Source: a phage
Sequence record: PZ338878.1
Strand: one strand, 5' to 3'
DNA length: 64,000 nt
Shown: piece by piece, positions 4,528-16,971 of the stretch
Numbering within the stretch: the first letter of the stretch is position 1
Layout of the letters: every line of letters begins with the position of its first letter
Made by a program: the position numbers and the translations under genes
Notes under the pieces: model-generated
What the model saw: the letters and a program-made list of their open reading frames with translations, nothing else
The model's database searches: none
Told to the model about the DNA's origin: nothing

Positions 4528-5250
4528 TTAAGCAATGATTGCTGCGATATTAGGTTTAACAAAGGTAGATGGCTTCATAATTTTACCTTTGTCATCAAAG
4601 AATACGTATACCTTTTGAACTTCGTTATATACAGCATGTACTCCAGTATAAGAACCTTCTGCACGATCTTTGCTTCGCATCTCGATAGCATCACACTCTT
4701 TTTCAAGAGCTTCAACAATATCCTTAGTTTCCCAAATAGCCAGGAGTTGCTTCTTGGTAGGATACTTGGACTCATTGCTATTCAACACTTCACGCATAAC
4801 CTTCTTCTCGTTATAAACAGAACGCACCAAAGTATCTCGTGCCATACGTGTAAGTGTAAGAGACATTAGGGCAAATTGCAAGTCATTTTCTACCATTTTA
4901 TCAAATTCAATGATAACATCGTAGATGTTTTCTGCCAGAACATCTCCTGTCGGCATTTCCAGAGCTTTATCAACACCTTCTTTACCAAAGAACATAAACG
5001 CCAGGTAGGATGCTACCACAAAAATATCTGCTGCTGCATCAAGTAATTCAACGTGATCATTTTCCTGTGCTGCTGCTTGGAACTCTTTTAGTTCTTCTCG
5101 TACAAAAGAAAGTTGAGCTTCAAACATCTCTTGAGTAAATTCTGGAGTTACGCCTCCACGTGCCTTAGCATTCCAAGCAACAATTTGATCGGCAGCTTTG
5201 ATAAAGAAGCTATTGTCCACTTTTACTTGTTTGAAAAAATTCTCGATCAT
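4528..5250 (-). CDS. MazG-like nucleoside triphosphate pyrophosphohydrolase (putative)
   Basis: EExxE...ExxD-type acidic helix signature (REELKEFQAAAQENDHVELLDAAAD). Confidence 0.4.
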   Translation of the reverse strand: MIENFFKQVKVDNSFFIKAADQIVAWNAKARGGVTPEFTQEMFEAQLSFVREELKEFQAAAQENDHVELLDAAADIFVVASYLAFMFFGKEGVDKALEMPTGDVLAENIYDVIIEFDKMVENDLQFALMSLTLTRMARDTLVRSVYNEKKVMREVLNSNESKYPTKKQLLAIWETKDIVEALEKECDAIEMRSKDRAEGSYTGVHAVYNEVQKVYVFFDDKGKIMKPSTFVKPNIAAIIA

Positions 5251-5259
5251 TGTTTCTCC

Positions 5260-5440
5260 TTATTTAAAATATTGTTCTAACAAAACACTAATGCGAACTA
5301 CCGATTCGCCCATATACGCCCCAGCACAGAGGAAAACAACAAATCTACAAAAATTGCAGTACCATTTGTTCACTGGAAACGAGGCTAACATTATAATTGC
5401 AATAGCAATTAACATCATAAGAACTGTTACTAATACCATA
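5260..5440 (-). CDS. small membrane protein (59 aa, below ORF-track cutoff)
   Basis: MVLVTVLMMLIAIAIIMLASF hydrophobic N-terminus; GAGG RBS; nested between ligase and MazG-like genes. Confidence 0.3.
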
Positions 5441-5448
5441 TTTACCTC

Positions 5449-6564
5449 TTACTCTGCTGGTTCCCAAGTACCTGGAATCATCTTACGTACACGTACCCCA
5501 ACAGGCTTGGTAGGAATACCTTCGTCTGAAAATTCTTCGTACTCAATTTCAACAAATTGACCAATAAGTGTCAAAGCATTTTCTTCTTTACGATAGTTAA
5601 TGGTTTCATCTGAATCCTTACGCATCAGGAATTCGACTACTTTACCATTTTCCATCTCGCCTGTCAATACCCCGTCACCATTTTTATCACGTTTTGCACT
5701 TACCACCTTAACTTCAAGCGTCTGCCGTGGTTTACGTTTAATAACATCATAAGAACGTTTATCAAACTCATAAACACCTTGTGCATTACGATAAACAACA
5801 CCTTCAGCTTTCTCACGCAGAGCTTTTGCATAGAATGCATCAAACTGCTCTTGGTTTTCAATGTACTCTGTATGTACTACACAAATAAGTTCATCTAAAC
5901 CTTTATCTTCAACAACTTCTTTTAGAGCAGCCAAAACTTCAACCCTCTTCTCAAATGGTACAGATGGCACAGGAACATCATATACATAGTATTTAAGAAG
6001 CGGAGTGTTAGCATTATGCTTTTTCCACGCACTATTAATTTGTTGAAGGCTAAGGACACCCAAACCAGCAAAAACTTCACCATCAAGAGGATGACCAACT
6101 ACTTCTTTAATGAAGGTTGGAATTTCTTTCCAGTGAGGTGGAAGTTTATATACCTCCCCAGCTTTAGATAAGCATTCACCTTGCATGTTAATCATTGAAC
6201 GTAGACCATTCAATTTATATTGTGCATAACCTGGGAACAAAACACGATCAGCATAATCTTTATAATCCTGACATTTCATGGGTGTGGAAGGAACATGGTT
6301 TTCAGCTTCCTCTTTTGTTTTGTAATACCCATTCTTAAGTTGCTTTGTCCATTTGGCAAGAGCTTCTATTTCAGCTTGTTCTTCTGCTGTTGTTTCATTT
6401 GAGCGACCAATATTTTTAGGTTCTGCCGTATAAGATTTGCTAGTAATCTTTCCACCTAATTGACCATGAGCAACAGTTACAACACTACCTTCGGTATAGA
6501 CTGACCACTGTTTAATTTTACCTGTAGAAGTTTTACCATACAATGTAGGATTAGTTTGTTTCAT
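5449..6564 (-). CDS. ATP-dependent DNA ligase
   Basis: Nucleotidyltransferase motifs KLNGLR (I), DGEV (III), EGVVYR (IV), DVIKRK (V). Start moved to ATG at 6564, which has a GGAGG RBS; the ORF-track start at 6612 lacks one. Confidence 0.6.
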   Translation of the reverse strand: MKQTNPTLYGKTSTGKIKQWSVYTEGSVVTVAHGQLGGKITSKSYTAEPKNIGRSNETTAEEQAEIEALAKWTKQLKNGYYKTKEEAENHVPSTPMKCQDYKDYADRVLFPGYAQYKLNGLRSMINMQGECLSKAGEVYKLPPHWKEIPTFIKEVVGHPLDGEVFAGLGVLSLQQINSAWKKHNANTPLLKYYVYDVPVPSVPFEKRVEVLAALKEVVEDKGLDELICVVHTEYIENQEQFDAFYAKALREKAEGVVYRNAQGVYEFDKRSYDVIKRKPRQTLEVKVVSAKRDKNGDGVLTGEMENGKVVEFLMRKDSDETINYRKEENALTLIGQFVEIEYEEFSDEGIPTKPVGVRVRKMIPGTWEPAE

Positions 6565-6754
6565 CTTTAACCTCCAGTTGCGAAAGAACCCATTTAGCCA
6601 TTTCAATTTCACCGTGTAGTCTGCCTAGTTCATAGGCATCATCAATATTACCACCAGTGTAATCATCCACCATAAAGTAAGGATCTTCGCTACTGTTAGG
6701 TGCGTTTGCAATTCTCGTTAATTCTTCAATAAATGTCATAGTTACCCTTACCAA
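6551..6754 (-). CDS. hypothetical protein (67 aa)
   Basis: ORF in co-directional block; stop overlaps ligase start. Confidence 0.4.
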   Translation of the reverse strand: MVRVTMTFIEELTRIANAPNSSEDPYFMVDDYTGGNIDDAYELGRLHGEIEMAKWVLSQLEVKDETN

Positions 6755-6972
6755 TTATATACAAGAGTTTGAATCTCTTCCATCAAGTCTTCAAGATCTG
6801 TATCAACGTATTCAGAAGATGTTGCCATAAAGTATGTAATCATTGTGAACCCTTCCGAAGAAAGGGCATCAAGGATATCATTAAACATATCTTCCATTTC
6901 AGTATTCTCACCAAATGAGAATAACATTTGTTGATCTTCGCTTACACCTTTAACATAGATAGCTGTACTCAT
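6748..6972 (-). CDS. hypothetical acidic protein (74 aa)
   Basis: ORF tightly packed with neighbours. Confidence 0.4.
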   Translation of the reverse strand: MSTAIYVKGVSEDQQMLFSFGENTEMEDMFNDILDALSSEGFTMITYFMATSSEYVDTDLEDLMEEIQTLVYNW

Positions 6973-6975
6973 ATA

Positions 6976-7296
6976 TTAATCCTTAAGACGTTCATTTAAA
7001 TCTGCAATAACATCACCTAAATCTTCACATTCCAGTGTTAACTCTGAAACTTGTCCACTCAAATAACAAACTTCTTCATTTAGATCTGAAATAATGTTTT
7101 CTAATGAATCTACTTGATCATCATATGAACGTTTTGTTTCTTCAAGTTCTTCTGTAAGATCATTAATCAGACGAAGCAAAGATAAGATATAGCCGTCTCC
7201 TGTCTCGTTCCTCCACTCACTTCCGTAGCGATAAATAATAATTTCACCATTATCGACTACTGTAAAATACTTACCTTCACCAGAATAAATTTCCAT
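6976..7296 (-). CDS. hypothetical coiled-coil protein (106 aa)
   Basis: ORF with charged heptad-like sequence. Confidence 0.4.
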   Translation of the reverse strand: MEIYSGEGKYFTVVDNGEIIIYRYGSEWRNETGDGYILSLLRLINDLTEELEETKRSYDDQVDSLENIISDLNEEVCYLSGQVSELTLECEDLGDVIADLNERLKD

Positions 7297-7305
7297 ACAC
7301 TCTCC

Positions 7306-7710
7306 TTATTGTAGCTTAAGTGAACTGCGAAGACGTTTCTCTTGCTGATCACGAATATGTTGTGGAACCTCATGAATTGAGTCGTTACCGTGCCTATTTT
7401 CAACAACTAAAGAGATAACTTGATAACCAAACTCTTCAGCAAGAGTAAAATAAGGTTTAAGTTCTTTCTCTGTGGTTGAAGTGTTAGAGACAATAATCTT
7501 TTTAATATCAGATGCCATAGCATCACGAACAATACTCTGACACCATGCGTGTGCTTTACCTACATTCTCTGGCTTCCAATCGTAAACACCACTTTCTGTG
7601 TAATGATATTGATCTGCCTCACAGATAGGCCAATAACCTTCAGAAATAATTTCTGCTACTGTAGATTTACCTGCACCTGAAACACCACGTAAAATGATAA
7701 GTTGTTTCAT
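7306..7710 (-). CDS. P-loop polynucleotide 5'-kinase-like protein
   Basis: N-terminus MKQLIILRGVSGAGKST resembles the T4 Pnk kinase domain start (Walker A); abuts the RNA-ligase-like gene. Confidence 0.5.
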   Translation of the reverse strand: MKQLIILRGVSGAGKSTVAEIISEGYWPICEADQYHYTESGVYDWKPENVGKAHAWCQSIVRDAMASDIKKIIVSNTSTTEKELKPYFTLAEEFGYQVISLVVENRHGNDSIHEVPQHIRDQQEKRLRSSLKLQ

Positions 7711-8643
7711 TTAGCCTCCAAAGAAGTTTTCTATTTCTTTACGTCGCTCTTGTGGATCTAAAGCAGCCCATTGAGTCTTAGTAAAGTTGTTTCGAAGCCA
7801 TTCTAGCAAAGTATAATATTCTTCGTCAACAATTTGTTTAGCATTTTTTGGGTTGTCCCAAATCATATCCCACTTCTTATTGCCACCACGCATAAGGAAT
7901 TTCTTAGCAAGATAATATGGTGACTTAATCTTTAACAGCAAGTTAAACGGATAGTTTGTTTCACGAATAACAAACCCTTCGTGCTTACAATGTTTAGACA
8001 TTTCAACAACATCTGAAAATTTAATCATCGGATAAACTTCAGGACGTTTAAATTTTGTAATAGATGCAATCCCATCAAGCACACCTTCGGGTAACATGAA
8101 ACTTGTCCCATCAGGATTTTGAATCCTTGCTCCAATTAAGTATGCGCCTGGTTCTTCTTCAACAATATGTGGATCAGAAGGATCACAGATTTCAAAAAGG
8201 AAAGTTGCTTTTGCACTTTCTGTCCACTTAATGAAATATTCTATGTCATCACACTCGGAAACAATATGGTTCTTGGCAAGAATTGCAAAATCTGACTCTA
8301 GGCTCCCTGTTGTTGATACAATAAGTTGCCCTTTGTACACACCTACAGATGCCATAAAACCGTTTACTTTACGGACAGCATCTACAAGCTGGTCTGCTGG
8401 AAGATCTGTACCATTCTCAAAACGATTAAAGATTTTAGTAAAAGGCCAAATAACAACATTGTCTTCTGAGTCAACAACCAACCCACGACAATCTAGAAGG
8501 CGTTTGTCTACGTCCCACAAGTTGTCCCAGAATACATTGTTTTTGTATTTAAGTACAGCAAGACCAGCATACTCTCCAGATTTAACTTCTTTTTTATGCA
8601 CTAAACCTTTTGCAATCAGGTCATCACAATTGAACTTAGCCAC
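7711..8643 (-). CDS. RNA ligase-like nucleotidyltransferase
   Basis: Motifs KVNGF (I, no Arg at +5, unlike DNA ligases), FEICD (III), EGFVIRE (IV), LLLKIK (V). Confidence 0.5.
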   Translation of the reverse strand: MAKFNCDDLIAKGLVHKKEVKSGEYAGLAVLKYKNNVFWDNLWDVDKRLLDCRGLVVDSEDNVVIWPFTKIFNRFENGTDLPADQLVDAVRKVNGFMASVGVYKGQLIVSTTGSLESDFAILAKNHIVSECDDIEYFIKWTESAKATFLFEICDPSDPHIVEEEPGAYLIGARIQNPDGTSFMLPEGVLDGIASITKFKRPEVYPMIKFSDVVEMSKHCKHEGFVIRETNYPFNLLLKIKSPYYLAKKFLMRGGNKKWDMIWDNPKNAKQIVDEEYYTLLEWLRNNFTKTQWAALDPQERRKEIENFFGG

Positions 8644-8644
8644 C

Positions 8645-9196
8645 TTAATCTCCTTTGATTATCTTATGATGGTCTACAACAACAATATCACGCTTATCCA
8701 TAATAGAGATGATTTCGTCAAAATGCAAGATTTTTCCGTGTGCGTCCCAACCAACATCCAACATTTTCCCATACAAATGATCAGGGAATGATCCGTGAGA
8801 GTGCCCGTGTAGCATGATTGATCCATGCCCTTGTTTATTCCAGGAAGCCATAGGGTAATGGCTTAAGACGAAGAACAGTTTCTGATATTTCACTTCATCA
8901 TAATACACCACCTCGCCATATTCTGCAAGCACTTCTCGGTGTTTACTGTAATCATGGTTCCCAACACAGTAAGTAATATCCCCTTGGAGACGGGAAGCAA
9001 TCTTACGGGTATCTTCTTCAGTCCCGAAACAGAAGTCCCCAAGATGGTACATCTTTACTCCTGGTCTTGTGGCACATTTATTCCATGCTTCGATCAGTGC
9101 TTCTGTCATATGCTCCATATCTTCCCACGGGCGATATTCAGGAGCAAACTCTCGGATACGTTTGTGCATAAAATGCAAATCACTTGTAATAAACAT
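8645..9196 (-). CDS. calcineurin-like metallophosphoesterase (candidate 2',3'-cyclic/3'-phosphate end-healing phosphatase)
   Basis: Motifs DLHF, GDFCFG, GNHDY, GHSHG. Confidence 0.6.
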   Translation of the reverse strand: MFITSDLHFMHKRIREFAPEYRPWEDMEHMTEALIEAWNKCATRPGVKMYHLGDFCFGTEEDTRKIASRLQGDITYCVGNHDYSKHREVLAEYGEVVYYDEVKYQKLFFVLSHYPMASWNKQGHGSIMLHGHSHGSFPDHLYGKMLDVGWDAHGKILHFDEIISIMDKRDIVVVDHHKIIKGD

Positions 9197-9555
9197 TAGT
9201 ATAATCCCTCGCTGAATAGTTCACTGTCGTGACCATTTCTTTCATAGTTAATTTGTTTGGCATTATCTGCAATGATATAAGCATCTTTGCGACTCCACCA
9301 GTTATAATACTGATCAATAAACCCTTGATTATCAGGTAAGCAAAACAGTTTATCAATCAATCCTGCATCTTTTAAAACATTAAGTTGTGCAGATAGTACA
9401 GGATTTGCATGCCTAACACAAGGGATAATTAACTCTTCACCATTGTTGAGAATATACTTATTCGCAGCGCATACTATAACACGTTGAGCATAGTGATCCT
9501 CACCAATCCAAGTAAGAGGTTGGTAACAAATATCATGTTGATTAGTAGCGCACAT
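9196..9555 (-). CDS. hypothetical protein (Cys-rich, 119 aa)
   Basis: ORF; start moved to ATG at 9555 (ORF-track start at 9558 is TTG). Confidence 0.4.
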   Translation of the reverse strand: MCATNQHDICYQPLTWIGEDHYAQRVIVCAANKYILNNGEELIIPCVRHANPVLSAQLNVLKDAGLIDKLFCLPDNQGFIDQYYNWWSRKDAYIIADNAKQINYERNGHDSELFSEGLY

Positions 9556-9701
9556 CAATTTTCTTCATACTCTTCGTCTGTATGTATATCGTAAAAGCAA
9601 TCTTCAAAAGTTGCAAGTGCTTTTTCTACATCGGGCCAATGGTTAGTGTGTTTGTATATATAAAACCCATCCCCTTCATCTACCCAAATAACATAAAGCA
9701 T
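9555..9701 (-). CDS. small hypothetical protein (48 aa)
   Basis: AAGGAGG RBS then ATG at 9701; stop overlaps next start (ATGA-type junction). Confidence 0.3.
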   Translation of the reverse strand: MLYVIWVDEGDGFYIYKHTNHWPDVEKALATFEDCFYDIHTDEEYEEN

Positions 9702-9710
9702 AACACCTCC

Positions 9711-10052
9711 TTAATAGTTAACACGTTTAATTTCAACACCGTAGGATGAAATAAAATTTTCCTTAGCTAACATATATTTACCAGCAGCAGAAGGGTTTGA
9801 TGTATGGACATAGATAGTTTTAAGAGCATCCCATTCACCAGCATACAACATACATTCTACGTCTAAGAATGCATGATATCCTTCCTGATCTTCTCCAAGA
9901 TCATTATCGAAGTGTATCTCTGAGATATTATTGAAATTATCTTCATCTGAAACAAAAGATAACCAATCCTCAAAAGATTTTAACCAAATGGCATCCTCAT
10001 AACCATAATCTTTAGGATCTCTTAAATCGTCTAACCAAAGAATTTTAGCCAC
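9711..10052 (-). CDS. hypothetical protein
   Basis: ORF; likely GTG start at 10052 with GAAGGGGG RBS just after the upstream stop; ORF-track start at 10085 overlaps the upstream gene. Confidence 0.4.
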   Translation of the reverse strand: MAKILWLDDLRDPKDYGYEDAIWLKSFEDWLSFVSDEDNFNNISEIHFDNDLGEDQEGYHAFLDVECMLYAGEWDALKTIYVHTSNPSAAGKYMLAKENFISSYGVEIKRVNY

Positions 10053-10054
10053 TA

Positions 10055-10246
10055 TCAACCCCCTTCCTGTTTCTCTTCTTTCCAAGTTTTACCATTATCT
10101 ACCAACTTCTTAGAAACAGCAAATCTTTCTCCATTGATATAAAACAAATAAAGAATAAAGGATTTTCCTATAGTTACAGTATCTACTACTTCTACACGCT
10201 TCACACCTTGCATGTATTTGGCTTTACCTGAATAAATAAGGAACAT
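10055..10246 (-). CDS. hypothetical protein (63 aa)
   Basis: ORF in co-directional block. Confidence 0.35.
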   Translation of the reverse strand: MFLIYSGKAKYMQGVKRVEVVDTVTIGKSFILYLFYINGERFAVSKKLVDNGKTWKEEKQEGG

Positions 10247-10524
10247 TACTTATTCCTTTTGTTGTTGATCACATCTAAAGCTGTGTAAGGTTTGTTTGTA
10301 CCGCTGTATTCAAGAATAATTGGTACATATTCATAGACCAACTCAAAAGTACCATACATAGAATCTGCAACTGAAATAAGCATTTCAGTGCCTTTGTCGT
10401 TCTTAATTAATGAAAATCTTGCCCCTGGTTTATTGAGCACTTCATATTTCTTACCTGCTGTCAGCAAACCTGAATACCATTCATTTTCCACAACAGATAA
10501 ACACTTCAGATAAGTTTTTCTCAT
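10246..10524 (-). CDS. hypothetical protein (92 aa)
   Basis: ORF, start/stop overlap with neighbours. Confidence 0.4.
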   Translation of the reverse strand: MRKTYLKCLSVVENEWYSGLLTAGKKYEVLNKPGARFSLIKNDKGTEMLISVADSMYGTFELVYEYVPIILEYSGTNKPYTALDVINNKRNK

Positions 10525-10862
10525 TTCTTTTTGCTCCTTCTTTTAGGCTTCTCGTATAAACCTAACACAGCCGACTCTTTTGCGCAAATAGGAACTGACT
10601 TCATTCCTCGTTTTTTAGCTTCTGGTAGATTCAAAACCCACCAGCCAAACCAGTACAATTCATCTTCTGTGAAAGGATCTGCCATAGGATCTGCATCACG
10701 TGCTTCAAATTTAGCAAGAGCTTCTTCTATCTTTTCTATTGGAGTATCAAAGACAAAAGCCTCTGTGTCAAATTTTTGTTTCTTAGGAGCGGCTTTTGCC
10801 GCCACATCTTTAGATGCGCGCTTTGTTACGGATCGCTTCTTCGGTGTTTTCGCCATCAACAA
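10521..10862 (-). CDS. hypothetical basic protein, possibly nucleic-acid binding
   Basis: Lys/Ala/Pro-rich basic N-terminus and basic C-terminus. Confidence 0.4.
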   Translation of the reverse strand: MLMAKTPKKRSVTKRASKDVAAKAAPKKQKFDTEAFVFDTPIEKIEEALAKFEARDADPMADPFTEDELYWFGWWVLNLPEAKKRGMKSVPICAKESAVLGLYEKPKRRSKKK

Positions 10863-11049
10863 CCTCCATGCGGTGTAAGAAATCTTGCTGGAATCGCCAA
10901 TACTGTTGACCAGTCCTTACATCTTCGTAGATCACAACAGGATCAAATACTTTAGATACACCCGCTGGTTTAGGAAAGCCAACTACACGATATAAACCGC
11001 CTTTGCTAATACAAGAATATGTTACATCAGTTAAAATTTCTTTTTTCAT
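10810..11049 (-). CDS. hypothetical protein (79 aa)
   Basis: ORF in co-directional block. Confidence 0.35.
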   Translation of the reverse strand: MKKEILTDVTYSCISKGGLYRVVGFPKPAGVSKVFDPVVIYEDVRTGQQYWRFQQDFLHRMEVVDGENTEEAIRNKARI

Positions 11050-11243
11050 TTCTTAATAAACTCCAATACAGGTACGTGATCAGCAGTTAAAGTTACACAA
11101 TTGTAACTTACCTTTTCAACTTCAGAAAATGCTTCAACCCATAGCAAGAAATTCTCTTTAGCTTCTTCATAATTCAATGTTGACTTAACAACATGGAACT
11201 CACCAAGGATTACTCTATAGATTGTTTGCATAGTTTGATTCAT
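11046..11243 (-). CDS. hypothetical protein (65 aa)
   Basis: ORF, 4-nt overlap with next gene. Confidence 0.35.
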   Translation of the reverse strand: MNQTMQTIYRVILGEFHVVKSTLNYEEAKENFLLWVEAFSEVEKVSYNCVTLTADHVPVLEFIKK

Positions 11244-11309
11244 TTATTTTTCCTTTGTTTAAAATGTGTTAAACAATCGCAAATGCTTGTGACGCACTTT
11301 GTGATCCCA

Positions 11310-11717
11310 CTAATTAATGTCAGCACTATGATTGTTGAGAGTATAGGATACTCCATCGCCCAAGTCAACATGAATCTCAACTCCTAACTGTCTTTCTAAT
11401 GGTAAACGTTTTGAGAATTGATAATTACAAAATTTACAGTCTAAGTCAAGCAACTCATGTTTGCTTAAACCTGCAACGATAACTTTGCTTCCCACTGTCC
11501 ACTCAATACCTTCAAAGTTATCTCTTCTTTTCAAAATGTCAAGTAAGAAGATGATTTGTTGCCACTCCGTAGACAAGTCTTCTTCATAAAATGCAGAACA
11601 AAAAGTTTTATCATCGTAGAAAGCATACATTATGCCTCCATCTATTGTTTCACTTCTAACGTAACGTGTGACCCTCATTATTCCCTCCTGTATGGCTCTG
11701 TAACGAGCTAATAGCAC
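11310..11717 (-). CDS. hypothetical protein, first gene of the leftward early block
   Basis: ORF with AGGAGGG RBS; borders the divergent intergenic region. Confidence 0.4.
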   Translation of the reverse strand: MLLARYRAIQEGIMRVTRYVRSETIDGGIMYAFYDDKTFCSAFYEEDLSTEWQQIIFLLDILKRRDNFEGIEWTVGSKVIVAGLSKHELLDLDCKFCNYQFSKRLPLERQLGVEIHVDLGDGVSYTLNNHSADIN

Positions 11718-11809
11718 CTAAGATATGCAATCACCTTACCTCACAGTAAAACTCGTTACAATCGTTTTTAGGAGGTTCAGGTTGTACTTAAAAATAATCT
11801 AAAAAGGTG

Positions 11810-11838
11810 TTGACAAACGCAAAAAAGTATGCTACCCT
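11810..11838 (+). promoter_or_regulatory. sigma70-type promoter (TTGACA, 17-nt spacer, TGc-TACCCT)
   Basis: Perfect -35 and TG-extended -10 sharing the TATG-N-TA architecture of the other promoters here; transcript would begin at a CCCCC...GGGGG stem (11841-11871). Confidence 0.35.
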
Positions 11839-12019
11839 AACCCCCGAAAAACGCCGAGCGCAGCGAGGGGGTGTTATCTAATCTTGTGATACATGATCTA
11901 ACAGACAACTGAGTAGTCTACATATAGCACTATGTTATGTCTATAATACTAACATACATGCTCTATACTAACAATAGATTATTTATTAATTTTATTATTA
12001 ATTAAATAATAAATATCTA

Positions 12020-12048
12020 TTGACTTTAGATCTATCTGTATGTAGAGT
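12020..12048 (+). promoter_or_regulatory. sigma70-type promoter upstream of the prs-like gene
   Basis: TTGACT, 17 nt, TAGAGT preceded by TG; AT-rich upstream tract. Confidence 0.5.
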
Positions 12049-12087
12049 AGAGAACATAAAGTCCTAACTCAGCTAAGGAGATAAAAA

Positions 12088-12981
12088 ATGAAAGTTAGTA
12101 TTCTGCATGGTGTTGACTGTTATGTTACTGATGTAGACGTTAAAGTGTTTACATTCTCTGGTGGAGAACAACATGTTCAATTAGATATGAATCTATCAGA
12201 TTTCAATCATGCTACAGACAGAATCTTACTCACTTTAGAAGTAAGATCTGCTAAAGACTTGATGACTTTGGTTATGACTAAGAATGCATTGGACAATATG
12301 CTATATCATAAACCATATTGTGTTGATTTACTCATGTTGTATGTGCCGTATGCACGACAAGACAGAGTGTGTGAGCCTGGGGAAGCATTCGGAGTTAAAG
12401 CATTTGCTTCTATAATTAATTCATTAAATTTCTCACGTGTTATCGTTGCTGATCCGCATAGTGATGTTACTCCAGCAGTGTTTGACAGACTCTGTGTAAT
12501 ACCTCAAGAAGAGATTGCTTACGAAACTTTAAAGTGGAAGTTACGTATGGAGAATTTTGCTCTTGTTAGCCCTGATGGTGGTGCTCTTAAGAAAATATTT
12601 AAATTATCTAAGAAAATGTCTTTAGATGTGTTCTGTGCAGAGAAGGTTAGAGATACCGCAACAGGTGCTATTGTTCGTACAGACATTTCTGTACAGGATT
12701 TCAATAAGCGTAACCTGATGATCGTAGATGATATCTGTGATGGTGGTAGAACTTTTATCGAATTGGCTAAAGTGCTACGTGCTCGTAACGCAGGTAAGAT
12801 TGAGCTATATGTTACGCACGGTATCTTTTCTAAAGGTCTTAAAGAGTTAAGTGAGCACTTTGACTGCATTCATTCCCTTAATGTGTGGGAAGATAACATC
12901 CAAGAAGATTCTGGTGTTCTTGTTAAGAATCAGTCAGATTTGCAACAACAAATTGTATCTCCATACGTGTGGAATTTTTAA
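12088..12981 (+). CDS. prs: ribose-phosphate pyrophosphokinase (PRPP synthetase) family protein; candidate ADP-ribose pyrophosphokinase (Adps) of a NARP1-type pathway
   Basis: PRPP-binding loop MIVDDICDGGRTF; AAGGAG RBS; adjacent to nadV-like gene. Confidence 0.75.
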   Translation: MKVSILHGVDCYVTDVDVKVFTFSGGEQHVQLDMNLSDFNHATDRILLTLEVRSAKDLMTLVMTKNALDNMLYHKPYCVDLLMLYVPYARQDRVCEPGEAFGVKAFASIINSLNFSRVIVADPHSDVTPAVFDRLCVIPQEEIAYETLKWKLRMENFALVSPDGGALKKIFKLSKKMSLDVFCAEKVRDTATGAIVRTDISVQDFNKRNLMIVDDICDGGRTFIELAKVLRARNAGKIELYVTHGIFSKGLKELSEHFDCIHSLNVWEDNIQEDSGVLVKNQSDLQQQIVSPYVWNF

Positions 12982-12991
12982 ATAATAAGTG

Positions 12992-13020
12992 TTGACAATA
13001 GGGAGTATGCTTAGTAAGAT
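12992..13020 (+). promoter_or_regulatory. sigma70-type promoter upstream of the nadV-like gene, with overlapping inverted repeat
   Basis: TTGACA, 17 nt, TAAGAT; 8-bp inverted repeat GGGAGTAT / ATACTCCC (13001-13008 and 13019-13026) brackets the -10. Confidence 0.5.
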
Positions 13021-13052
13021 ACTCCCACATTAACAAACAAGGAGACATAACT

Positions 13053-14786
13053 ATGAATATTTTTGCACCTTTTGCTACTGATTGGTACAAACCTGGTCAC
13101 AAGCAGATGTACAACCAAAATACAAAACTTATTTTCTCTAATTTAACTCCTCGTAATGATAAAAACTTTGCACACTATGCAGATCGTGAAGCACGTGGTG
13201 TGATTGTTTTAGGTATTCGTCGAGCAGTCACTGATGCTCTTGTAACTATGTGGGATAGCTTCTTTAAAATGTCTCGTAGTGCAGCAGTAAATAAATTTTA
13301 TCGTATGTCTAAAAATGCATTAGGTGCTTCTGCTCCTTCTGCTGAATGTTGGGGAGAATTGCACGATTTAGGTTATCTTCCGCTGGAAGTTCGATCTCTG
13401 CCAGAAGGTGTTTTGTGTCCTATTGGTGTTCCTGTGTTTACTGTGCATAATACTTTAGAAAAATTCTTTTGGTTAACTAACTATGTGGAAACACTACTGT
13501 CAGATGAAACTTGGAAGACAATGACTAATGCCACAGCAGCTTTTCAGTATAAGCGTATCGCTATGGCATATGCGATGGCAACGTGTGATAATATTGATCA
13601 CGTTAACTTCCAGTGTCATGATTTTAGCCTACGTGGTTTAAGTAATATCGAAGATGGTTATAAGAGTGGTATCGCTCACTTGGCATCGTTCACAGGAACA
13701 GATAATATTCTGGCTATTGAAACTGTGCATGACTATTATGGTATTGATTATGATCAGTTTGTTGCAGGTTCGATTCCGGCAACAGAACATTCAGTAGCAA
13801 CGACTAACATTGGAGCTATTGTTGAAGATCTGAAGAAACATTTCCCACATCTTAAAGATGATGTAGATGGGCTTCGTTATGTAGCAGAAAAAGAGTTTCT
13901 TCGTCGTTATATCGAAGAAATTGTTCCAGAAGGTTTTTGTTCATATGTAGCAGACTCTTATGACTATTGGGCTGTATTGACTCGCATTCTGGTAGAATTG
14001 AAAGATTCCATTATGTCACGAAATGGTCGTCTTGTTATTCGTCCAGATTCAGGAGATCCGGTTAAAGTTGTTGCAGGATACAATGTTGAATCTTTTGATA
14101 ACTATGAAGACCTCTTAAATAATGGTATTGCGACAGCCACTGAAGTAGTTCATTTGGCTGATGTTAATAAGTATTACAATGTTCTTCAGGATTGCAGTGT
14201 TGCTGACTGTATTGATGAAACTTATGAGATTCCTTATTGTGAAGCAGTAGGTTCTATTCAAATCCTTTGGGAAGTGTTTGGTGGTACTATCAACCGAAAA
14301 GGCTACAAGGTTCTTGATCAGCATATCGGTATGATTTATGGTGATTCTATTACTGTTGAACGAGAACACGAGATCTTACGCCGACTGAAGAAGAAAGGTT
14401 TTGCAGCTTCCAATATTGTATTTGGTGTTGGTAGTTATACTTATCAGTTCAATACACGAGATACTTTTGGTTTTGCTGTTAAAGCAACAGGTAGTATTAT
14501 CGGTGAACACGAAATTTTGGTAAGTAAGGAGCCTAAAACTGATCCTGGTAAACGCTCTGCAAAAGGTTTTATTAAGGTTGTTAAGGATACCAATGGTAAT
14601 CTGTCTCTTGTAGATAATCTTTCTTTTAAAGATATCCAGGATGAAGACAATGAGTTACAAGTTATCTTCAAGGATGGTAAGGTTATTACACCACAAGTAG
14701 AAGGCCGTGATGAAACATTCACTGATATCCGCAACCGTGTTGACGTAGAGGTTCTTCGTACTATGGGAACCATCCAGGTTGACTAA
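13053..14786 (+). CDS. nadV: nicotinamide phosphoribosyltransferase family protein; candidate nicotinamide ADP-ribose transferase (Namat) of a NARP1-type pathway
   Basis: 577 aa; NAMPT-like N-terminus (FATDWYKPGHKQMY); GGAG RBS. Confidence 0.75.
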   Translation: MNIFAPFATDWYKPGHKQMYNQNTKLIFSNLTPRNDKNFAHYADREARGVIVLGIRRAVTDALVTMWDSFFKMSRSAAVNKFYRMSKNALGASAPSAECWGELHDLGYLPLEVRSLPEGVLCPIGVPVFTVHNTLEKFFWLTNYVETLLSDETWKTMTNATAAFQYKRIAMAYAMATCDNIDHVNFQCHDFSLRGLSNIEDGYKSGIAHLASFTGTDNILAIETVHDYYGIDYDQFVAGSIPATEHSVATTNIGAIVEDLKKHFPHLKDDVDGLRYVAEKEFLRRYIEEIVPEGFCSYVADSYDYWAVLTRILVELKDSIMSRNGRLVIRPDSGDPVKVVAGYNVESFDNYEDLLNNGIATATEVVHLADVNKYYNVLQDCSVADCIDETYEIPYCEAVGSIQILWEVFGGTINRKGYKVLDQHIGMIYGDSITVEREHEILRRLKKKGFAASNIVFGVGSYTYQFNTRDTFGFAVKATGSIIGEHEILVSKEPKTDPGKRSAKGFIKVVKDTNGNLSLVDNLSFKDIQDEDNELQVIFKDGKVITPQVEGRDETFTDIRNRVDVEVLRTMGTIQVD

Positions 14787-14857
14787 ATAAAAACTTCGTG
14801 ATAAGATTAAGGTAAGGAGAGCCTACAACTGCCCTGGATGGGCTTCACGAAGGATTT

Positions 14858-15079
14858 ATGAAACAACATAATTTTTATTTTCGTTGCCGAGCCTGTAACA
14901 GACACTTGACTAATCATTCCCGTAGAGACAGGAATGGTAATATTCAAGAGTCGGATCTATGCTCGATTTGTACAAGTTTGGCATTCGATGACAGTCCCGA
15001 AAGGGTTTATCAACATCAAAGTGTAACTGATCTTCTTCTAAATTACACAACACCAGAGGAGGAATTAGATTTCACATAA
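14858..15079 (+). CDS. hypothetical zinc-ribbon protein (73 aa)
   Basis: CRAC...CSIC cysteine pairs. Confidence 0.35.
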   Translation: MKQHNFYFRCRACNRHLTNHSRRDRNGNIQESDLCSICTSLAFDDSPERVYQHQSVTDLLLNYTTPEEELDFT

Positions 15080-15092
15080 TTAAGGAAACAGT

Positions 15093-15203
15093 ATGTCTAC
15101 AGAAATTATTTTTGGCTTATCTGTTTTTATTGCTATTGTATCTTTTGTATGCGGTTATACACTAGGTTACAGATCAAGAAAAAATATTGTAAAAACTAGT
15201 TGA
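15093..15203 (+). CDS. small single-pass membrane peptide (36 aa, below ORF-track cutoff)
   Basis: AAGGA RBS then ATG; MSTEIIFGLSVFIAIVSFVCGYTLGY hydrophobic core. Confidence 0.25.
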   Translation: MSTEIIFGLSVFIAIVSFVCGYTLGYRSRKNIVKTS

Positions 15204-15229
15204 CAACATAGCTAGTTATTTGCTAAGAT
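15200..15229 (+). promoter_or_regulatory. sigma70-type promoter (TTGACA, 18 nt, TAAGAT)
   Basis: Perfect -35 and 5/6 -10, upstream of ORF 15260 and the tRNA array. Confidence 0.45.
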
Positions 15230-15259
15230 AAGCACAAGTTAAACAAAAAGGAGAAAACT

Positions 15260-15526
15260 ATGACAGAACGTACTTATGGTAAAGAATTGATTGAGAAGCA
15301 CGTATTGATTGATAATAAAGGTGGAGCAATCTTTATTTTTGAACCTGAATCAGTTCTTACTGAAAACGAAAATGGTAGCGTTAGCCTTAAAACAGAAAGT
15401 TTGGTAATTGACTTCCTTGCTCTTCTGGATGAAATGGGGCTTCCGCACGAAGAAGAAGCAGCTATTGCTTTGATTACAGTTCTTCTGGAGAAACGCGAAG
15501 CTGGTGAAATGACCCAGTATGCTTAA
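15260..15526 (+). CDS. hypothetical protein (88 aa)
   Basis: ORF with AAAGGAG RBS. Confidence 0.45.
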   Translation: MTERTYGKELIEKHVLIDNKGGAIFIFEPESVLTENENGSVSLKTESLVIDFLALLDEMGLPHEEEAAIALITVLLEKREAGEMTQYA

Positions 15527-15533
15527 TATTCAA

Positions 15534-15609
15534 GGTTCCATAGCTCACTGACGAGAGCGCACACCTCATAAGTGTCGAGGGCAGGGATTGTAACCCTGGG
15601 GAACCACCA
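15534..15609 (+). tRNA. tRNA-Met (anticodon CAT; Ile2 or initiator not excluded)
   Basis: 76 nt; acceptor GGTTCCA/GGGAACC (one 7:66 mismatch); anticodon loop CTCATAA; non-canonical T-loop ATTGTAA; CCA encoded. Confidence 0.5.
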
Positions 15610-15640
15610 TTTAAAAGGAGATGCTATGCATCTCCTATAT

Positions 15641-15726
15641 GCAAGTGTGGTGGAATTGGTGATACACATTGTGCTTAAAACGCAACGCTTAAATGATTGA
15701 GGGTTCGAATCCCTCCACTTGCACCA
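15641..15726 (+). tRNA. tRNA-Leu (anticodon TAA)
   Basis: 86 nt class II; acceptor GCAAGTG/CACTTGC; anticodon loop CTTAAAA; long variable arm; T-arm GAGGG-TTCGAAT-CCCTC; A73; CCA encoded. Confidence 0.7.
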
Positions 15727-15728
15727 AC

Positions 15729-15834
15729 GCCTAGTAGGGTATTTGGTAATTCCGAGGCCATCAAAGCCTGAAAAATATGTTAGACCGCTTTGTCTAACTA
15801 AATACGAAATATGGTTCGATTCCATAACTAGGCT
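15729..15834 (+). ncRNA. tRNA-like element, 106 nt, non-canonical (possible stable small RNA, pseudo-tRNA or suppressor-like)
   Basis: Perfect 7-bp acceptor pairing GCCTAGT/ACTAGGC and canonical T-arm TATGG-TTCGATT-CCATA, but a 40-nt internal region with a 7-bp hairpin (15779-15798); candidate anticodon loop CATCAAA; no CCA encoded. Confidence 0.3.
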
Positions 15835-15866
15835 TCAATTTAAATAATAATTTTAGTAAAAATATC

Positions 15867-15895
15867 TTGACATTCACTTAGTTTTTTGTTATAGT
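15867..15895 (+). promoter_or_regulatory. sigma70-type promoter inside the tRNA array (TTGACA, 17 nt, TGt-TATAGT)
   Basis: Perfect -35 plus TG-extended -10, about 12 nt upstream of the next tRNA-like gene. Confidence 0.5.
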
Positions 15896-15906
15896 TACTG
15901 TGAAAA

Positions 15907-15988
15907 CGGGGTGTATCTCACCTGACTTCTAATCAGGCGTTAACCGAGTAATTGGAGTATGCAGGTTCGAATCCTGTCACCCCGACCA
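15907..15988 (+). tRNA. tRNA-Arg (anticodon TCT)-like, non-canonical D region
   Basis: 82 nt; acceptor CGGGGTG/CACCCCG; canonical anticodon arm CCTGA-CTTCTAA-TCAGG; T-arm GCAGG-TTCGAAT-CCTGT; CCA encoded; only 5 nt where the D-arm should be and a 23-nt region before the T-arm. Confidence 0.45.
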
Positions 15989-16006
15989 AAAAGTTTTAAA
16001 AACTAC

Positions 16007-16036
16007 TTGACAAGCAAGATAGTTTTATGTTAGATT
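16007..16036 (+). promoter_or_regulatory. sigma70-type promoter inside the tRNA array (TTGACA, 18 nt, TGt-TAGATT)
   Basis: Perfect -35 plus TG-extended -10, about 15 nt upstream of tRNA-Ser. Confidence 0.5.
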
Positions 16037-16051
16037 TAAAGTATGATAACG

Positions 16052-16141
16052 GGAAGGTAGGGCGCAGCGGTGCGCAACCAGGTTTGAACCCTGGCCCATT
16101 GTAGCGATACGGTGATGGTTCGACTCCATTATCTTCCTCCA
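16052..16141 (+). tRNA. tRNA-Ser (anticodon TGA)
   Basis: 90 nt class II; acceptor GGAAGGT/ATCTTCC; anticodon arm CCAGG-TTTGAAC-CCTGG; 19-nt variable arm; T-arm GATGG-TTCGACT-CCATT; CCA encoded. Confidence 0.7.
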
Positions 16142-16159
16142 AATTCAACTAGGAGCTTT

Positions 16160-16312
16160 ATGAATTATAAAACTATTGGACAGGTTGTTACCGGAGTTAA
16201 GATTGTAGATAATAAAGTTGTTTATGAGTATTCTAATCTTCAACAATCTGAAGATGGTAAAAATATTCGTATGGTAAAAGCAGAACAAAAAGATTCCGGT
16301 TGTTTTGAATAA
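16160..16312 (+). CDS. small hypothetical protein (50 aa) between tRNA genes
   Basis: AGGAG RBS then ATG at 16160; the ORF-track start at 16112 lies inside tRNA-Ser. Confidence 0.3.
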   Translation: MNYKTIGQVVTGVKIVDNKVVYEYSNLQQSEDGKNIRMVKAEQKDSGCFE

Positions 16313-16320
16313 TTAAGAAC

Positions 16321-16406
16321 GGTAGATTGGTGAAATGGTAGCCACAACAGTTTGCTAAACTGTCGTCGGAAACGGCGTGTAGGTTCAAGTCCTACATCTA
16401 CCGCCA
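16321..16406 (+). tRNA. tRNA-Ser (anticodon GCT)
   Basis: 86 nt class II; acceptor GGTAGAT/ATCTACC; anticodon arm ACAGT-TTGCTAA-ACTGT; long variable arm; T-arm GTAGG-TTCAAGT-CCTAC; G73; CCA encoded. Confidence 0.7.
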
Positions 16407-16540
16407 AGTTATCTTTAATGTAGCTTGTAATCTTACTTTAATAGAGTAAACTTTCGGCAGATGGCCTCCACCATCTTACCGATACCCTAATACTTCATAG
16501 TCAAGTGCCGCAAACACTGGCTATTTTAAAGATAATTTAT

Positions 16541-16616
16541 ACATCGTTAGCTTAGTTGGTAGAGCAAGGGGCTTTTAACTCCAAGGTCGAAGGTTCGAAT
16601 CCTTCACGATGTACCA
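16541..16616 (+). tRNA. tRNA-Lys (anticodon TTT)
   Basis: 76 nt; acceptor ACATCGT/ACGATGT (A1-U72); D-arm GCTT-AGTTGGTA-GAGC; anticodon loop CTTTTAA; T-arm GAAGG-TTCGAAT-CCTTC; CCA encoded. Confidence 0.65.
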
Positions 16617-16621
16617 AACAC

Positions 16622-16708
16622 GTAGGTATCGCATAGCGGCAATTGCTGGAGACTGTAAATCTCCTGCCCTTCGGGGCTTCGTTGGTTCGAGTCCAACTAC
16701 CTGCACCA
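16622..16708 (+). tRNA. tRNA-Tyr (anticodon GTA)
   Basis: 87 nt class II; acceptor GTAGGTA/TACCTGC; anticodon arm GGAGA-CTGTAAA-TCTCC; 16-nt variable arm with TTCG loop; T-arm GTTGG-TTCGAGT-CCAAC; CCA encoded. Confidence 0.7.
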
Positions 16709-16715
16709 AATTAAA

Positions 16716-16800
16716 GATGGATTGGCCTAGTGGTTGGGCGACGGACTGTTAATCCGTGAACGAAAGTTCTAGCAAGGTTCAAATCCTTGATCCATCGCCA
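16716..16800 (+). tRNA. tRNA with Asn anticodon (GTT) but a class II-type long variable arm
   Basis: 85 nt; acceptor GATGGAT/ATCCATC; D-arm GCCT-AGTGGTT-GGGC; anticodon arm ACGGA-CTGTTAA-TCCGT (as E. coli tRNA-Asn, from memory); 15-nt variable arm with GAAC/GTTC stem; T-arm CAAGG-TTCAAAT-CCTTG; G73; CCA encoded. Confidence 0.55.
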
Positions 16801-16879
16801 AATAGTGCTTGTAGAGTTAATAGAAACCTCTAGAATTTTCTAGAATTGTAGGTATAAAATCCTACCAAGCAAATATTTT

Positions 16880-16954
16880 GCTCCTATCGTATAACGGCTA
16901 TTACGGTTGCCTTGTAAGCAACTTATCAGGGTTCGAGTCCTTGTGGGAGCACCA
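16880..16954 (+). tRNA. tRNA-Thr (anticodon TGT)
   Basis: 75 nt; acceptor GCTCCTA/TGGGAGC; anticodon arm GTTGC-CTTGTAA-GCAAC; T-arm CAGGG-TTCGAGT-CCTTG; CCA encoded. Confidence 0.7.
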
Positions 16955-16971
16955 ATTTTAACTCTAAAGGA

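Follow-up and report, generated by a model that had tools for sequence, protein, structure and literature searches.

Two adjacent genes of a phi92-like (Justusliebigvirus) coliphage very probably form a two-gene NARP1 counter-defence module, and the pair is already known: near-identical proteins are catalogued as NARP1 in the paper that defined the pathway. The genes lie in a 64,000-nt stretch of DNA (record PZ338878.1; the window), which derives from a phi92-like E. coli myophage and has 99.4% identity to phage PHB05 at this locus. The first-pass annotation, made from the sequence alone, had described adjacent Prs-like and 577-aa Nampt-like genes, and both ORFs are found exactly as described. 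The Prs-like ORF, adps (ADP-ribose pyrophosphokinase homologue of the Prs family, 297 aa), occupies 12088-12981 and was assigned by ORF, profile matches, tree and predicted fold; the Nampt-like ORF, namat (nicotinamide ADP-ribose transferase homologue of the Nampt family, 577 aa), occupies 13053-14786 and was assigned by ORF, profile matches and structure comparison. Both are on the plus strand with a 71-nt gap between them, and each has in front of it a putative sigma-70-like promoter and, closer to the start codon, the ribosome-binding site AAGGAG. A Prs-family gene with an immediately neighbouring, co-oriented Nampt-family gene is the arrangement expected of NARP1. No gene for Adpp phosphatase, RyDEP or Nmnat was found nearby, in the flanking ORFs (9196-11717 upstream and 14858-17301 downstream) or in the wider annotation. 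Specifically, none of the flanking ORFs scanned matched a Macro-domain ADPR-1''-phosphate phosphatase, as would be expected of NARP1-AP, or an RyR-domain (PF02026) glycosidase, as would be expected of RyDEP-containing NARP1, and an Nmnat or Nudix-NMNAT domain, the mark of NARP2, was absent from these ORFs and from the PHB05 annotation of the window. Judged by gene content, the locus is the minimal two-gene form of NARP1.

The NARP1 pathway was described by Osterman et al. (bioRxiv 10.1101/2024.02.11.579819), who defined it genetically on genes 79-80 of phage Bas63 and biochemically on the SPbetaL1 homologues, whose active-site mutants lost activity. Other NARP1 operons shown to be active come from Paenibacillus foliorum, mycobacteriophage DyoEdafos and Vibrio phage Gary, and the Adps and Namat activities have been demonstrated for the SPbetaL1, P. 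foliorum and DyoEdafos enzymes. The Adps-Namat reading proposed in the first-pass annotation agrees with this work (10.1101/2024.02.11.579819) and with our sequence tests. In the proposed mechanism, a host SIR2-, TIR- or SEFIR-type defence would cleave NAD+ to ADP-ribose and nicotinamide; Adps (12088-12981) would convert ADP-ribose and ATP to ADPR-PP; and Namat (13053-14786) would join ADPR-PP to nicotinamide, yielding NAD+ directly, without passing through NMN and without the help of host salvage enzymes. In the same paper, the proteins of phi92, PHB05, Bas62 and Bas60 are already tabulated (Supplementary Tables 1 and 2): the Prs-like ones stand among the Prs/Adps homologues, flagged "Namat within 10 genes = Yes", and the Nampt-like ones among the Namat homologues, marked "Adps-associated". 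Four BASEL phages feature in the tables, Bas60 and Bas62 among them. Hence the novelty implied by the first-pass annotation falls away, and the window's copy adds nothing conceptually. A literature search for NARP1 experiments on a protein or mutant of phi92-like phages found none, so that function in this lineage rests on homology; both enzyme activities and the anti-defence phenotype are predicted for the window pair by homology only, its proteins being 26-39% identical to the tested Bas63 and SPbetaL1 enzymes.

The window Adps is a Prs-family protein that stands apart from the housekeeping enzymes. It matches Pribosyltran (PF00156, 1.4e-7) and Pribosyl_synth (PF14572, 1.7e-6) in Pfam and phrog_619 "ribose-phosphate pyrophosphokinase" in PHROGs (3.6e-91), and its AF2 model (pLDDT 93.8) has the Prs fold. 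Over 226 aa it is 36% identical to its Bas63 counterpart; identity to E. coli Prs is 24%. TIGR01251, a broad subfamily model, gives it 116.8 bits (cut-off 113) and E. coli Prs 422.7, and on all Prs equivalog models it reaches only 46-97 bits against cut-offs of 296-536; Bas63 Adps is likewise below cut-off. In a neighbor-joining tree of 32 sequences (Poisson distances; small outgroup of E. coli and four actinobacterial Prs), the split between Prs and the rest is recovered in 100% of 500 bootstraps, with the window protein on the side of Bas63 and SPbetaL1 Adps. The Adps-type motif forms DPHSDVT, KxRDxxTG and DDICDGGRT are present: the window protein has DPHSDVTPAVF, EKVRDTATG and DDICDGGRT in place of the Prs DLHAxQIQGFF, KRR flexible loop and DDMIDTGGT, and its C terminus is unrelated to the conserved Prs C-terminal segment. 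Thus the combination of equivalog score, Prs motifs and C-terminal segment that characterizes a housekeeping class I Prs is not found.

The catalytic features of the family are retained. Lys186 (codon 12643-12645, plus strand), in the catalytic flexible loop EKVRDTATG, aligns with K162 of SPbetaL1 Adps and K197 of B. subtilis Prs and is invariant in 88 homologues; the SPbetaL1 K162A mutant is inactive (10.1101/2024.02.11.579819). The PRPP-binding loop pointed out in the first ORF is present as the ribose-phosphate binding loop MIVDDICDGGRTF (residues 211-223; 12718-12756, plus strand), where cellular Prs has DDMIDTGGT. This loop is highly conserved in the same 88 homologues, with D214, D215 and F223 invariant and I216, C217, D218, G219, G220 and T222 nearly so. 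Neither sequence nor fold searches of the PDB turned up a solved Adps structure, so specificity for ADPR versus ribose-5-phosphate is not readable from residues.

The window Namat matches NAPRTase in Pfam (PF04095, 6e-38) and phrog_448 "nicotinamide phosphoribosyl transferase" in PHROGs (1.5e-188), and is 39% identical to Bas63 Namat. Its best PDB match by sequence is the SPbetaL1 Namat crystal structure 9W5X/9W5W (E 4.5e-118), with human NAMPT at about 5e-50, and 9W5X is also the best Foldseek match of its AF2 model (pLDDT 92; TMt 0.93, rmsd 2.5). The entry 9KE8 was considered as a phage Nampt and rejected, being Haemophilus ducreyi NadV. By alignment, all NAD+ contacts of SPbetaL1 Namat are kept or conservatively substituted in the window protein, at D10, Y12, F191, S192, R194, D217, A243, H246, R330, D332, G430, D431, S432, G460, S461, Y462, F466, T468, R469 and D470. 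His246 (codon 13788-13790, plus strand) is the equivalent of the catalytic histidine, SPbetaL1 H245, and F191, D217 and R330 correspond to SPbetaL1 F189, D215 and R306; all four are invariant in 67 homologues, indicating that the catalytic core is present.

Two clamp elements have been described that bear on the choice of substrate. The selectivity-clamp helix (SCH) has a published Namat-only motif, GSX-Phi1-X-Phi2-X-Phi3-TRD, whose third and seventh positions are aromatic (PMC12774641). The window sequence GSYTYQFNTRD (residues 460-470; 14430-14462, plus strand) fits it with aromatics Y462 and F466, and position 462 is F or Y in 119/119 homologues and position 466 in 116/119. The motif is absent from PRPP-using enzymes, namely, KVP40 Nampt (GGGLLQQLDRD), the Xcc enzyme (GGALLQKVDRD) and HdNadV (GAQTYQRNTRD). 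The selectivity-clamp loop (SCL) spans residues 35-49 (NDKNFAHYADREARG; 13155-13199, plus strand) as defined in PMC12774641, by whose rule the third residue is R, K or Y and, if it is K or Y, the fourth stacks on adenine. The window loop does not match this rule exactly: its third residue is K37 (K in 117 of 119 homologues), but the fourth, N38, is variable (N, L, Y or H), and it is the fifth position, F39, that carries the conserved aromatic, as also in Bas63 (K-W-F). Members of the subfamily conserve K37, F39 and H41. The alignment against Adps and Namat on the one hand and Prs and NadV on the other, proposed in the first-pass annotation, comes out on the NARP1 side, with the SCH motif, NAD+ contacts and catalytic lysine present and Adps apart from cellular Prs.

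How is the pair expressed? Upstream of adps lies a putative sigma-70-like promoter, TTGACT-17-TAGAGT (12020-12048, plus strand; 9/12 consensus), followed by AAGGAG at 12075-12080, 7 nt before the ATG; between the genes lies another, TTGACA-17-TAAGAT (12992-13020, plus strand; 10/12 consensus), followed by AAGGAG at 13039-13044, 8 nt before the namat ATG. The description as near-consensus suits the -35 hexamers but somewhat overstates the match at the -10. Taken singly, promoter-like sites are not significant (23 found versus 15.4 +/- 3.5 expected in 4.3 kb). The form TTGACN-N16-18-TAAGAT occurs 3 times versus 0.16 expected, always on the plus strand and directly upstream of genes at 12.9-15.3 kb. 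Expression may be early, from host-type promoters. A conserved gene for a 73-aa Cys4 protein comes after namat.

The namat promoter overlaps a perfect 8-bp inverted repeat, GGGAGTAT-N10-ATACTCCC (13001-13026, no strand assigned). The left arm, GGGAGTAT (13001-13008), is in the promoter spacer, the right arm, ATACTCCC, is at 13019-13026, and the -10 hexamer (13015-13020) begins in the 10-nt loop and runs into the right arm, so that the earlier statement of a repeat bracketing the -10 holds approximately. The window contains 50 perfect 8-bp repeats with this geometry versus about 20 in shuffles, with about 0.014 expected per 45-nt region, and the region as RNA folds at -15 kcal/mol (z = -3.15). 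The repeat is identical in Bas60 and Bas62, but those phages are about 97% identical overall, and its conservation is uninformative for that reason; in the next relative, Citrobacter phage Tr1, the intergenic spacer is 227 nt and non-alignable. Membership in a regulon was rejected, as the half-site occurs only at this locus in the window (2 matches versus 1.26 expected), and so was an intrinsic terminator for adps, as no T-run follows the repeat and the terminator scan makes no call. The suggestion that the repeat implies regulation thus finds nothing behind it beyond the presence of the repeat. A more elaborate arrangement, which we regard as unlikely, would have Namat and the Cys4 gene each on its own TTGAC(A/T)-17-TAAGAT promoter rather than in a simple operon, with the hairpin or palindrome uncoupling Namat from Adps expression (e.g., by operator binding or transcript processing) and with the insertion of about 57 aa in Namat or the Cys4 protein adding a function absent from the SPbetaL1 enzymes. 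That insertion relative to SPbetaL1 Namat covers residues 343-399 (14079-14249, plus strand; by alignment) and is predicted to form a small alpha/beta subdomain; the insertion of Bas63 Namat at this site is longer.

Another question is whether NARP1 chemistry here would serve defence at all. It might instead recycle ADP-ribose as part of general NAD+ housekeeping in the infected cell, e.g., where phage or host reactions have consumed NAD+. Pairs of Adps and Namat homologues are present in bacterial chromosomes outside prophages, and the Geminocystis pair adjoins an NrtR-type regulator that has a Nudix and an NrtR winged-helix domain. NrtR controls NAD metabolism and is responsive to ADP-ribose. 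Against this, deletion of the operon sensitized Bas63 to SIR2-HerA and phage Fado to DSR2 (10.1101/2024.02.11.579819), ADPR-PP was seen in Bas63 infection only with the defence system present, NARP1 by itself was enough to abolish several NAD+-depleting defences, and phage carriage is widespread (859 genomes, 4.3%). Taken together, these observations make a housekeeping purpose very unlikely and argue for counter-defence.

The least probable reading, to which we give hardly any weight, is the classical one of a PRPP synthetase and an NMN-forming nicotinamide phosphoribosyltransferase feeding host NMN-to-NAD+ salvage (NadR/PncC) and so raising NAD+ for replication. Database names and family models favor it, and the second protein passes the cut-off of NCBIfam NF006629. 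NCBIfam itself has no Adps or Namat model, and the window proteins return Prs and NAPRTase names only. The NMN-binding HdNadV structure is also almost as near in fold to the window Namat (TMt 0.92). Moreover, if no ADPR-PP is present, Namat enzymes in vitro use PRPP to form NMN, for which reason the window Namat may have some classical salvage activity as well. [quoted passage not shown] In the window itself, the first protein falls below all Prs equivalog cut-offs and has neither of the Prs motifs DLHAxQIQGFF and DTGGT, the second has the adenine-clamp motif that PRPP-using Nampts lack, and no Nmnat gene lies nearby to finish an NMN route.

Relative to the catalogued NARP1 genes of phi92, PHB05, Bas60 and Bas62, nucleotide identity is 97-99%, the promoter and inverted repeat are identical, and there is no functionally notable difference; each window protein differs at 2 residues from PHB05 and at 3 from Bas62, none at a functional site. 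Bas63 (Escherichia phage JohannRWettstein, Felixounavirus) belongs to a different phage family, with 36% (Adps) and 39% (Namat) identity, yet gene order and orientation are as in the window. Both Namats are long forms (577 aa in the window, 593 aa in Bas63) with insertions at the same two sites, the second being about 30 residues shorter in the window; the SCH is GSYTYQFNTRD versus a similar GSYTYQYMTRD, the SCL lysine is common to both with a fourth residue of Asn in the window and Trp in Bas63, and the Adps motifs DPHS, KVR..TG and DDICDGGRTF are shared. The spacer is 71 nt with a promoter-like site and hairpin in the window versus 45 nt in Bas63.

The Bacillus phage SPbetaL1 (Adps WIT26982.1; Namat WIT26983.1, PDB 9W5X/9W5W) provides the best match of the window Namat by both sequence and fold. 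Its NAD+/nicotinamide contacts, catalytic His, R306 (window R330) and K162 (window K186) are retained or conservatively substituted. In contrast, SPbetaL1 Namat (491 aa) has neither insertion and an SCL that is shorter by 6 residues, with Arg40 as the residue used, the Adps loop is DDLSSFGGT versus DDICDGGRT, and the genes overlap without an internal promoter, where the window has a 71-nt spacer. In Vibrio phage KVP40, NARP2 (NadV/Nampt with Nmnat) likewise restores NAD+ for the phage through a Nampt-family enzyme, but this Nampt has no clamp motif, uses PRPP and needs Nmnat, whereas the window has Adps and no Nmnat nearby. NARP1-AP (with the Macro-domain phosphatase Adpp) and RyDEP-containing NARP1 have the Adps/Namat core in common with the window, which shows no Macro- or RyR-domain gene in the scanned ORFs.

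With NARP1, phages rebuild the metabolite destroyed by Thoeris, DSR1/2, SIR2-HerA, SEFIR, Kongming and SPARSA, and knowledge of the pathway helps to predict phage host range. For Justusliebigvirus phages, the prediction is resistance to ADPR-producing NAD+ depletion. By published logic, the minimal form should fail against aRES-type defence because aRES yields ADPR-1''-phosphate and the locus has no Adpp phosphatase. The value of the present assignment lies in annotation, as nearly all GenBank records name these genes PRPP synthetase and nicotinamide or nicotinate phosphoribosyltransferase. Some Justusliebigvirus phages are under characterization against drug-resistant E. coli.

The 297-aa Adps ORF (12088-12981, + strand) matches Pfam Pribosyltran and Pribosyl_synth and PHROGs phrog_619 (3.6e-91), and the 577-aa Namat ORF (13053-14786, + strand) matches Pfam NAPRTase (6e-38) and phrog_448 (1.5e-188); both lie exactly where the first-pass annotation had placed them, each with an AAGGAG ribosome-binding site 7 to 8 nt ahead of its ATG. 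The NARP1 pathway proposed in that annotation agrees with the published description (10.1101/2024.02.11.579819). Its reading of the pair as NARP1 is supported by the published pathway, by the clamp helix and substrate contacts of Namat, and by the clade and K186 of Adps. We consider this reading very probable, with enzymatic steps and phenotype extrapolated by homology from tested enzymes at 26 to 39% identity. In about 60 GenBank/RefSeq records, the gene pair is nearly always called PRPP synthetase plus nicotinamide/nicotinate phosphoribosyltransferase, or hypothetical, and the names Adps and Namat are absent from all of the ~60 listed phage records matching 12020-14786.

NARP1 was described in a preprint by Osterman et al. 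that reportedly later appeared in Nature in 2024. The prs-like/nampt-like operon was found in four BASEL phages, its deletion made Bas63 sensitive to SIR2-HerA, and ADPR-PP was detected only in cells both infected and defence-expressing; SPbetaL1 Adps converts ADPR and ATP to ADPR-PP, and SPbetaL1 Namat converts ADPR-PP and nicotinamide to NAD+ (bioRxiv 10.1101/2024.02.11.579819). Its Supplementary Tables 1 and 2 list proteins of phi92, PHB05, Bas62 (JohannJBalmer) and Bas60 (PaulScherrer) as 'Namat within 10 genes: Yes' and 'Adps-associated', and three of the four BASEL entries could be identified there (Bas60, Bas62, and Bas63). The window runs collinear with the genome of Escherichia phage vB_EcoM_PHB05, starting at PHB05 position 35745, with an ungapped identity of 98.8% across its first 15 kb and 99.4% within 12020-14786, which places it by sequence in Justusliebigvirus (phi92-like myophages, Stephanstirmvirinae). 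Each window protein differs by 2 residues from PHB05 and 3 from Bas62, none at functional positions. Since near-identical phi92, PHB05, Bas60, and Bas62 proteins are already tabulated, NARP1 in this genus is published and catalogued. No experiments on any phi92-like NARP1 were found in the literature.

Alignment with characterised Adps and Namat and with housekeeping Prs supported both assignments. The window Adps shares 36% identity with its Bas63 counterpart (BLASTP, 226 aa); in the multiple alignment, its identity is 26% to SPbetaL1 Adps and 18 to 24% to cellular Prs. In a neighbor-joining tree of 32 sequences, five cellular Prs separated from all phage/Adps-like sequences in 100% of 500 bootstraps, and the window Adps clustered with those of other large enterobacterial myophages. 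The protein barely exceeds the cut-off of the broad NCBIfam subfamily model TIGR01251 (116.8 versus 113 bits) and, like Bas63 Adps, fails every NCBIfam Prs equivalog model; E. coli Prs scores 423 to 533 bits on NCBIfam models. Where cellular Prs have DLHAxQIQGFF, KRR, and DDMIDTGGT, the window Adps has the clade-typical DPHSDVT, KxRDxxTGxI, and DDICDGGRT, and its K186 corresponds in the alignment to SPbetaL1 K162, which is essential, and to B. subtilis K197. No solved Adps structure was found by sequence or fold; the nearest solved proteins are ordinary Prs (E ~1e-14; TM 0.72 to 0.77). Clade membership and pairing with an ADPR-PP-selecting Namat suggest that Adps is specific for ADPR.

Structures of SPbetaL1 Namat (9W5X and 9W5W) are available, and its selectivity clamp pairs a variable loop, termed SCL, with a helix, termed SCH (Lan et al., PMC12774641). 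SPbetaL1 Namat is the best PDB match of the 577-aa protein (4.5e-118), followed by H. ducreyi NadV (HdNadV; 6.8e-101) and human NAMPT (~5e-50). In an alignment with the Bas63, SPbetaL1, and KVP40 enzymes, all listed NAD+ contacts are kept (D10, Y12, F191, S192, R194, D217, A243, R330, D332, G430, D431, S432 [Ala in SPbetaL1], G460, S461, Y462 [Phe], F466 [Tyr], T468, R469, and D470), as is catalytic His246. The SCH (residues 460-470, GSYTYQFNTRD) fits the published Namat motif in full, and the motif is conserved over 119 database homologues. The SCL matches in part: its third residue is K37, as in Bas63, the variable fourth is Asn38, and the conserved aromatic is Phe39. The AlphaFold2 model (pLDDT 92) superposes best on 9W5X (TMt 0.93) and nearly as well on HdNadV (TMt 0.92); the two therefore cannot be told apart by fold alone. 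Compared with SPbetaL1 Namat, the window protein has two insertions (~residues 253-282 and 343-399), both predicted to form folded structure, and Bas63 Namat has insertions at the same sites.

Two alternatives share the small remaining probability. The first is classical PRPP/NMN salvage, of which Namat is partly capable in vitro; the SCH of PRPP-using enzymes, however, differs from that of the window (KVP40, GGGLLQQLDRD; Xcc, GGALLQKVDRD; HdNadV, GAQTYQRNTRD). HdNadV (Haemophilus ducreyi, PDB 9KE8/9KEO) has an intermediate clamp helix that keeps the Namat-like T-Y-Q..N-TRD frame but has neither of the two adenine-stacking aromatics, and may be an evolutionary intermediate from Nampt to Namat. 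The second is NARP1 chemistry serving housekeeping ADPR recycling, as suggested by chromosomal bacterial Adps/Namat pairs, one of them beside an NrtR regulator. The chromosome of the cyanobacterium Geminocystis sp. NIES-3708 (retrieved locus L010:5001-8191) carries an Adps-like gene that shares 45% identity with the window Adps, a Namat-like gene with clamp motif GSYTYQYVTRD, and beside them a gene for a regulator that combines NUDIX and NrtR winged-helix domains. Regulators of the NrtR type respond to ADP-ribose, and a bacterial NARP1 that serves regulated ADPR recycling would be consistent with this. Homologues also occur in Thorsellia and Endozoicomonas (41 to 46% identity).

For the preferred NARP1 reading, the variant was sought by domain scans of flanking ORFs (9196-11717 upstream, 14858-17301 downstream, and 4528-9196 further out) and in the PHB05 annotation of the window. 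Neither a Macro domain (Adpp of NARP1-AP), a RyR domain (RyDEP), nor an Nmnat (NARP2) was found in these, and the pair is therefore a minimal two-gene NARP1. Following the published reasoning, it would be expected to counter NADases that release ADPR but not aRES, whose product is ADPR-1''-phosphate.

A Namat homologue in Citrobacter phage Tr1 (retrieved locus L007:3519-6176) is 885 aa long and carries an insertion of ~310 aa immediately behind its catalytic RPDSG segment. The only PHROGs matched by this insert are ribonucleotide reductase, PhoH, and thymidylate synthase, each over a sub-region. An intein would give such a pattern, but Pfam detected no intein domain. The 867-aa protein P0217 may be similar.

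A + strand block starts with the pair and runs on through 16 tRNA genes into lysis and structural genes; minus-strand replication/repair genes lie upstream across a 370-bp AT-rich spacer. This divergent intergenic region (11718-12087) marks the strand switch at the cumulative GC skew minimum and contains promoter-like sites facing both directions, a minus-strand terminator-like hairpin (11865-11852), and short A/T palindromes (11991-12013). The tRNA genes (15534-18410, + strand) begin 750 nt downstream of Namat, include three of tRNA-Met type (CAT anticodon), and have sigma-70-like promoters scattered among them. On the minus strand, 4528-5250 encodes a 240-aa PRA-PH/MazG-type pyrophosphohydrolase-domain protein (PF01503, 3.2e-7), a further nucleotide-metabolism gene of the early region. 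An RNA-repair-like cassette a few genes upstream of the pair (7306-10085, - strand) comprises an AAA_33 kinase (7306-7710), an Rnl1-type RNA ligase (7711-8643), a metallophosphoesterase (8645-9196), and a cyclic-phosphate-processing receiver-domain protein (9711-10085; cREC_REC, PF20274, 3e-14). It probably serves tRNA-repair counter-defence; a connection to the ADPR-cyclic-phosphate by-product of NARP1 would be pure speculation.

Only three points are left over: the internal promoter and the palindrome in it, the deviating SCL, and a conserved small Cys4 gene downstream. Promoter-like sites precede Adps (TTGACT-17-TAGAGT, 12020-12048, + strand, 9/12 consensus positions) and Namat (TTGACA-17-TAAGAT, 12992-13020, + strand, 10/12), and chance alone yields many such single matches. 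TTGACN-N16-18-TAAGAT occurs 3 times versus 0.16 expected, each time immediately upstream of a + strand gene within 12.9 to 15.3 kb, and the looser TTGACN...TANNNT form 37 times versus 21; these are probably real host-type promoters. The inverted repeat reported in the first-pass annotation (arms GGGAGTAT at 13001-13008 and ATACTCCC at 13019-13026) is indeed present, overlapping the promoter spacer and the -10 hexamer, and its region folds well as RNA (-15 kcal/mol, z = -3.15). The regulatory role suggested for it found no further support: its half-site has no other copy in the window, and it is conserved only in ~97%-identical phages, the spacer of the next relative being unalignable. Immediately after Namat, 14858-15079 (+ strand) encodes the 73-aa Cys4 protein, which falls in phrog_37033 (a family listed without a function) and weakly matches the RecR zinc finger, with its own promoter-like TTGACT-17-TAAGAT (14779-14807) overlapping the Namat stop codon. 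This gene could be accessory or merely syntenic; the distantly related phage Tr1 encodes a 74% identical protein at the equivalent position.
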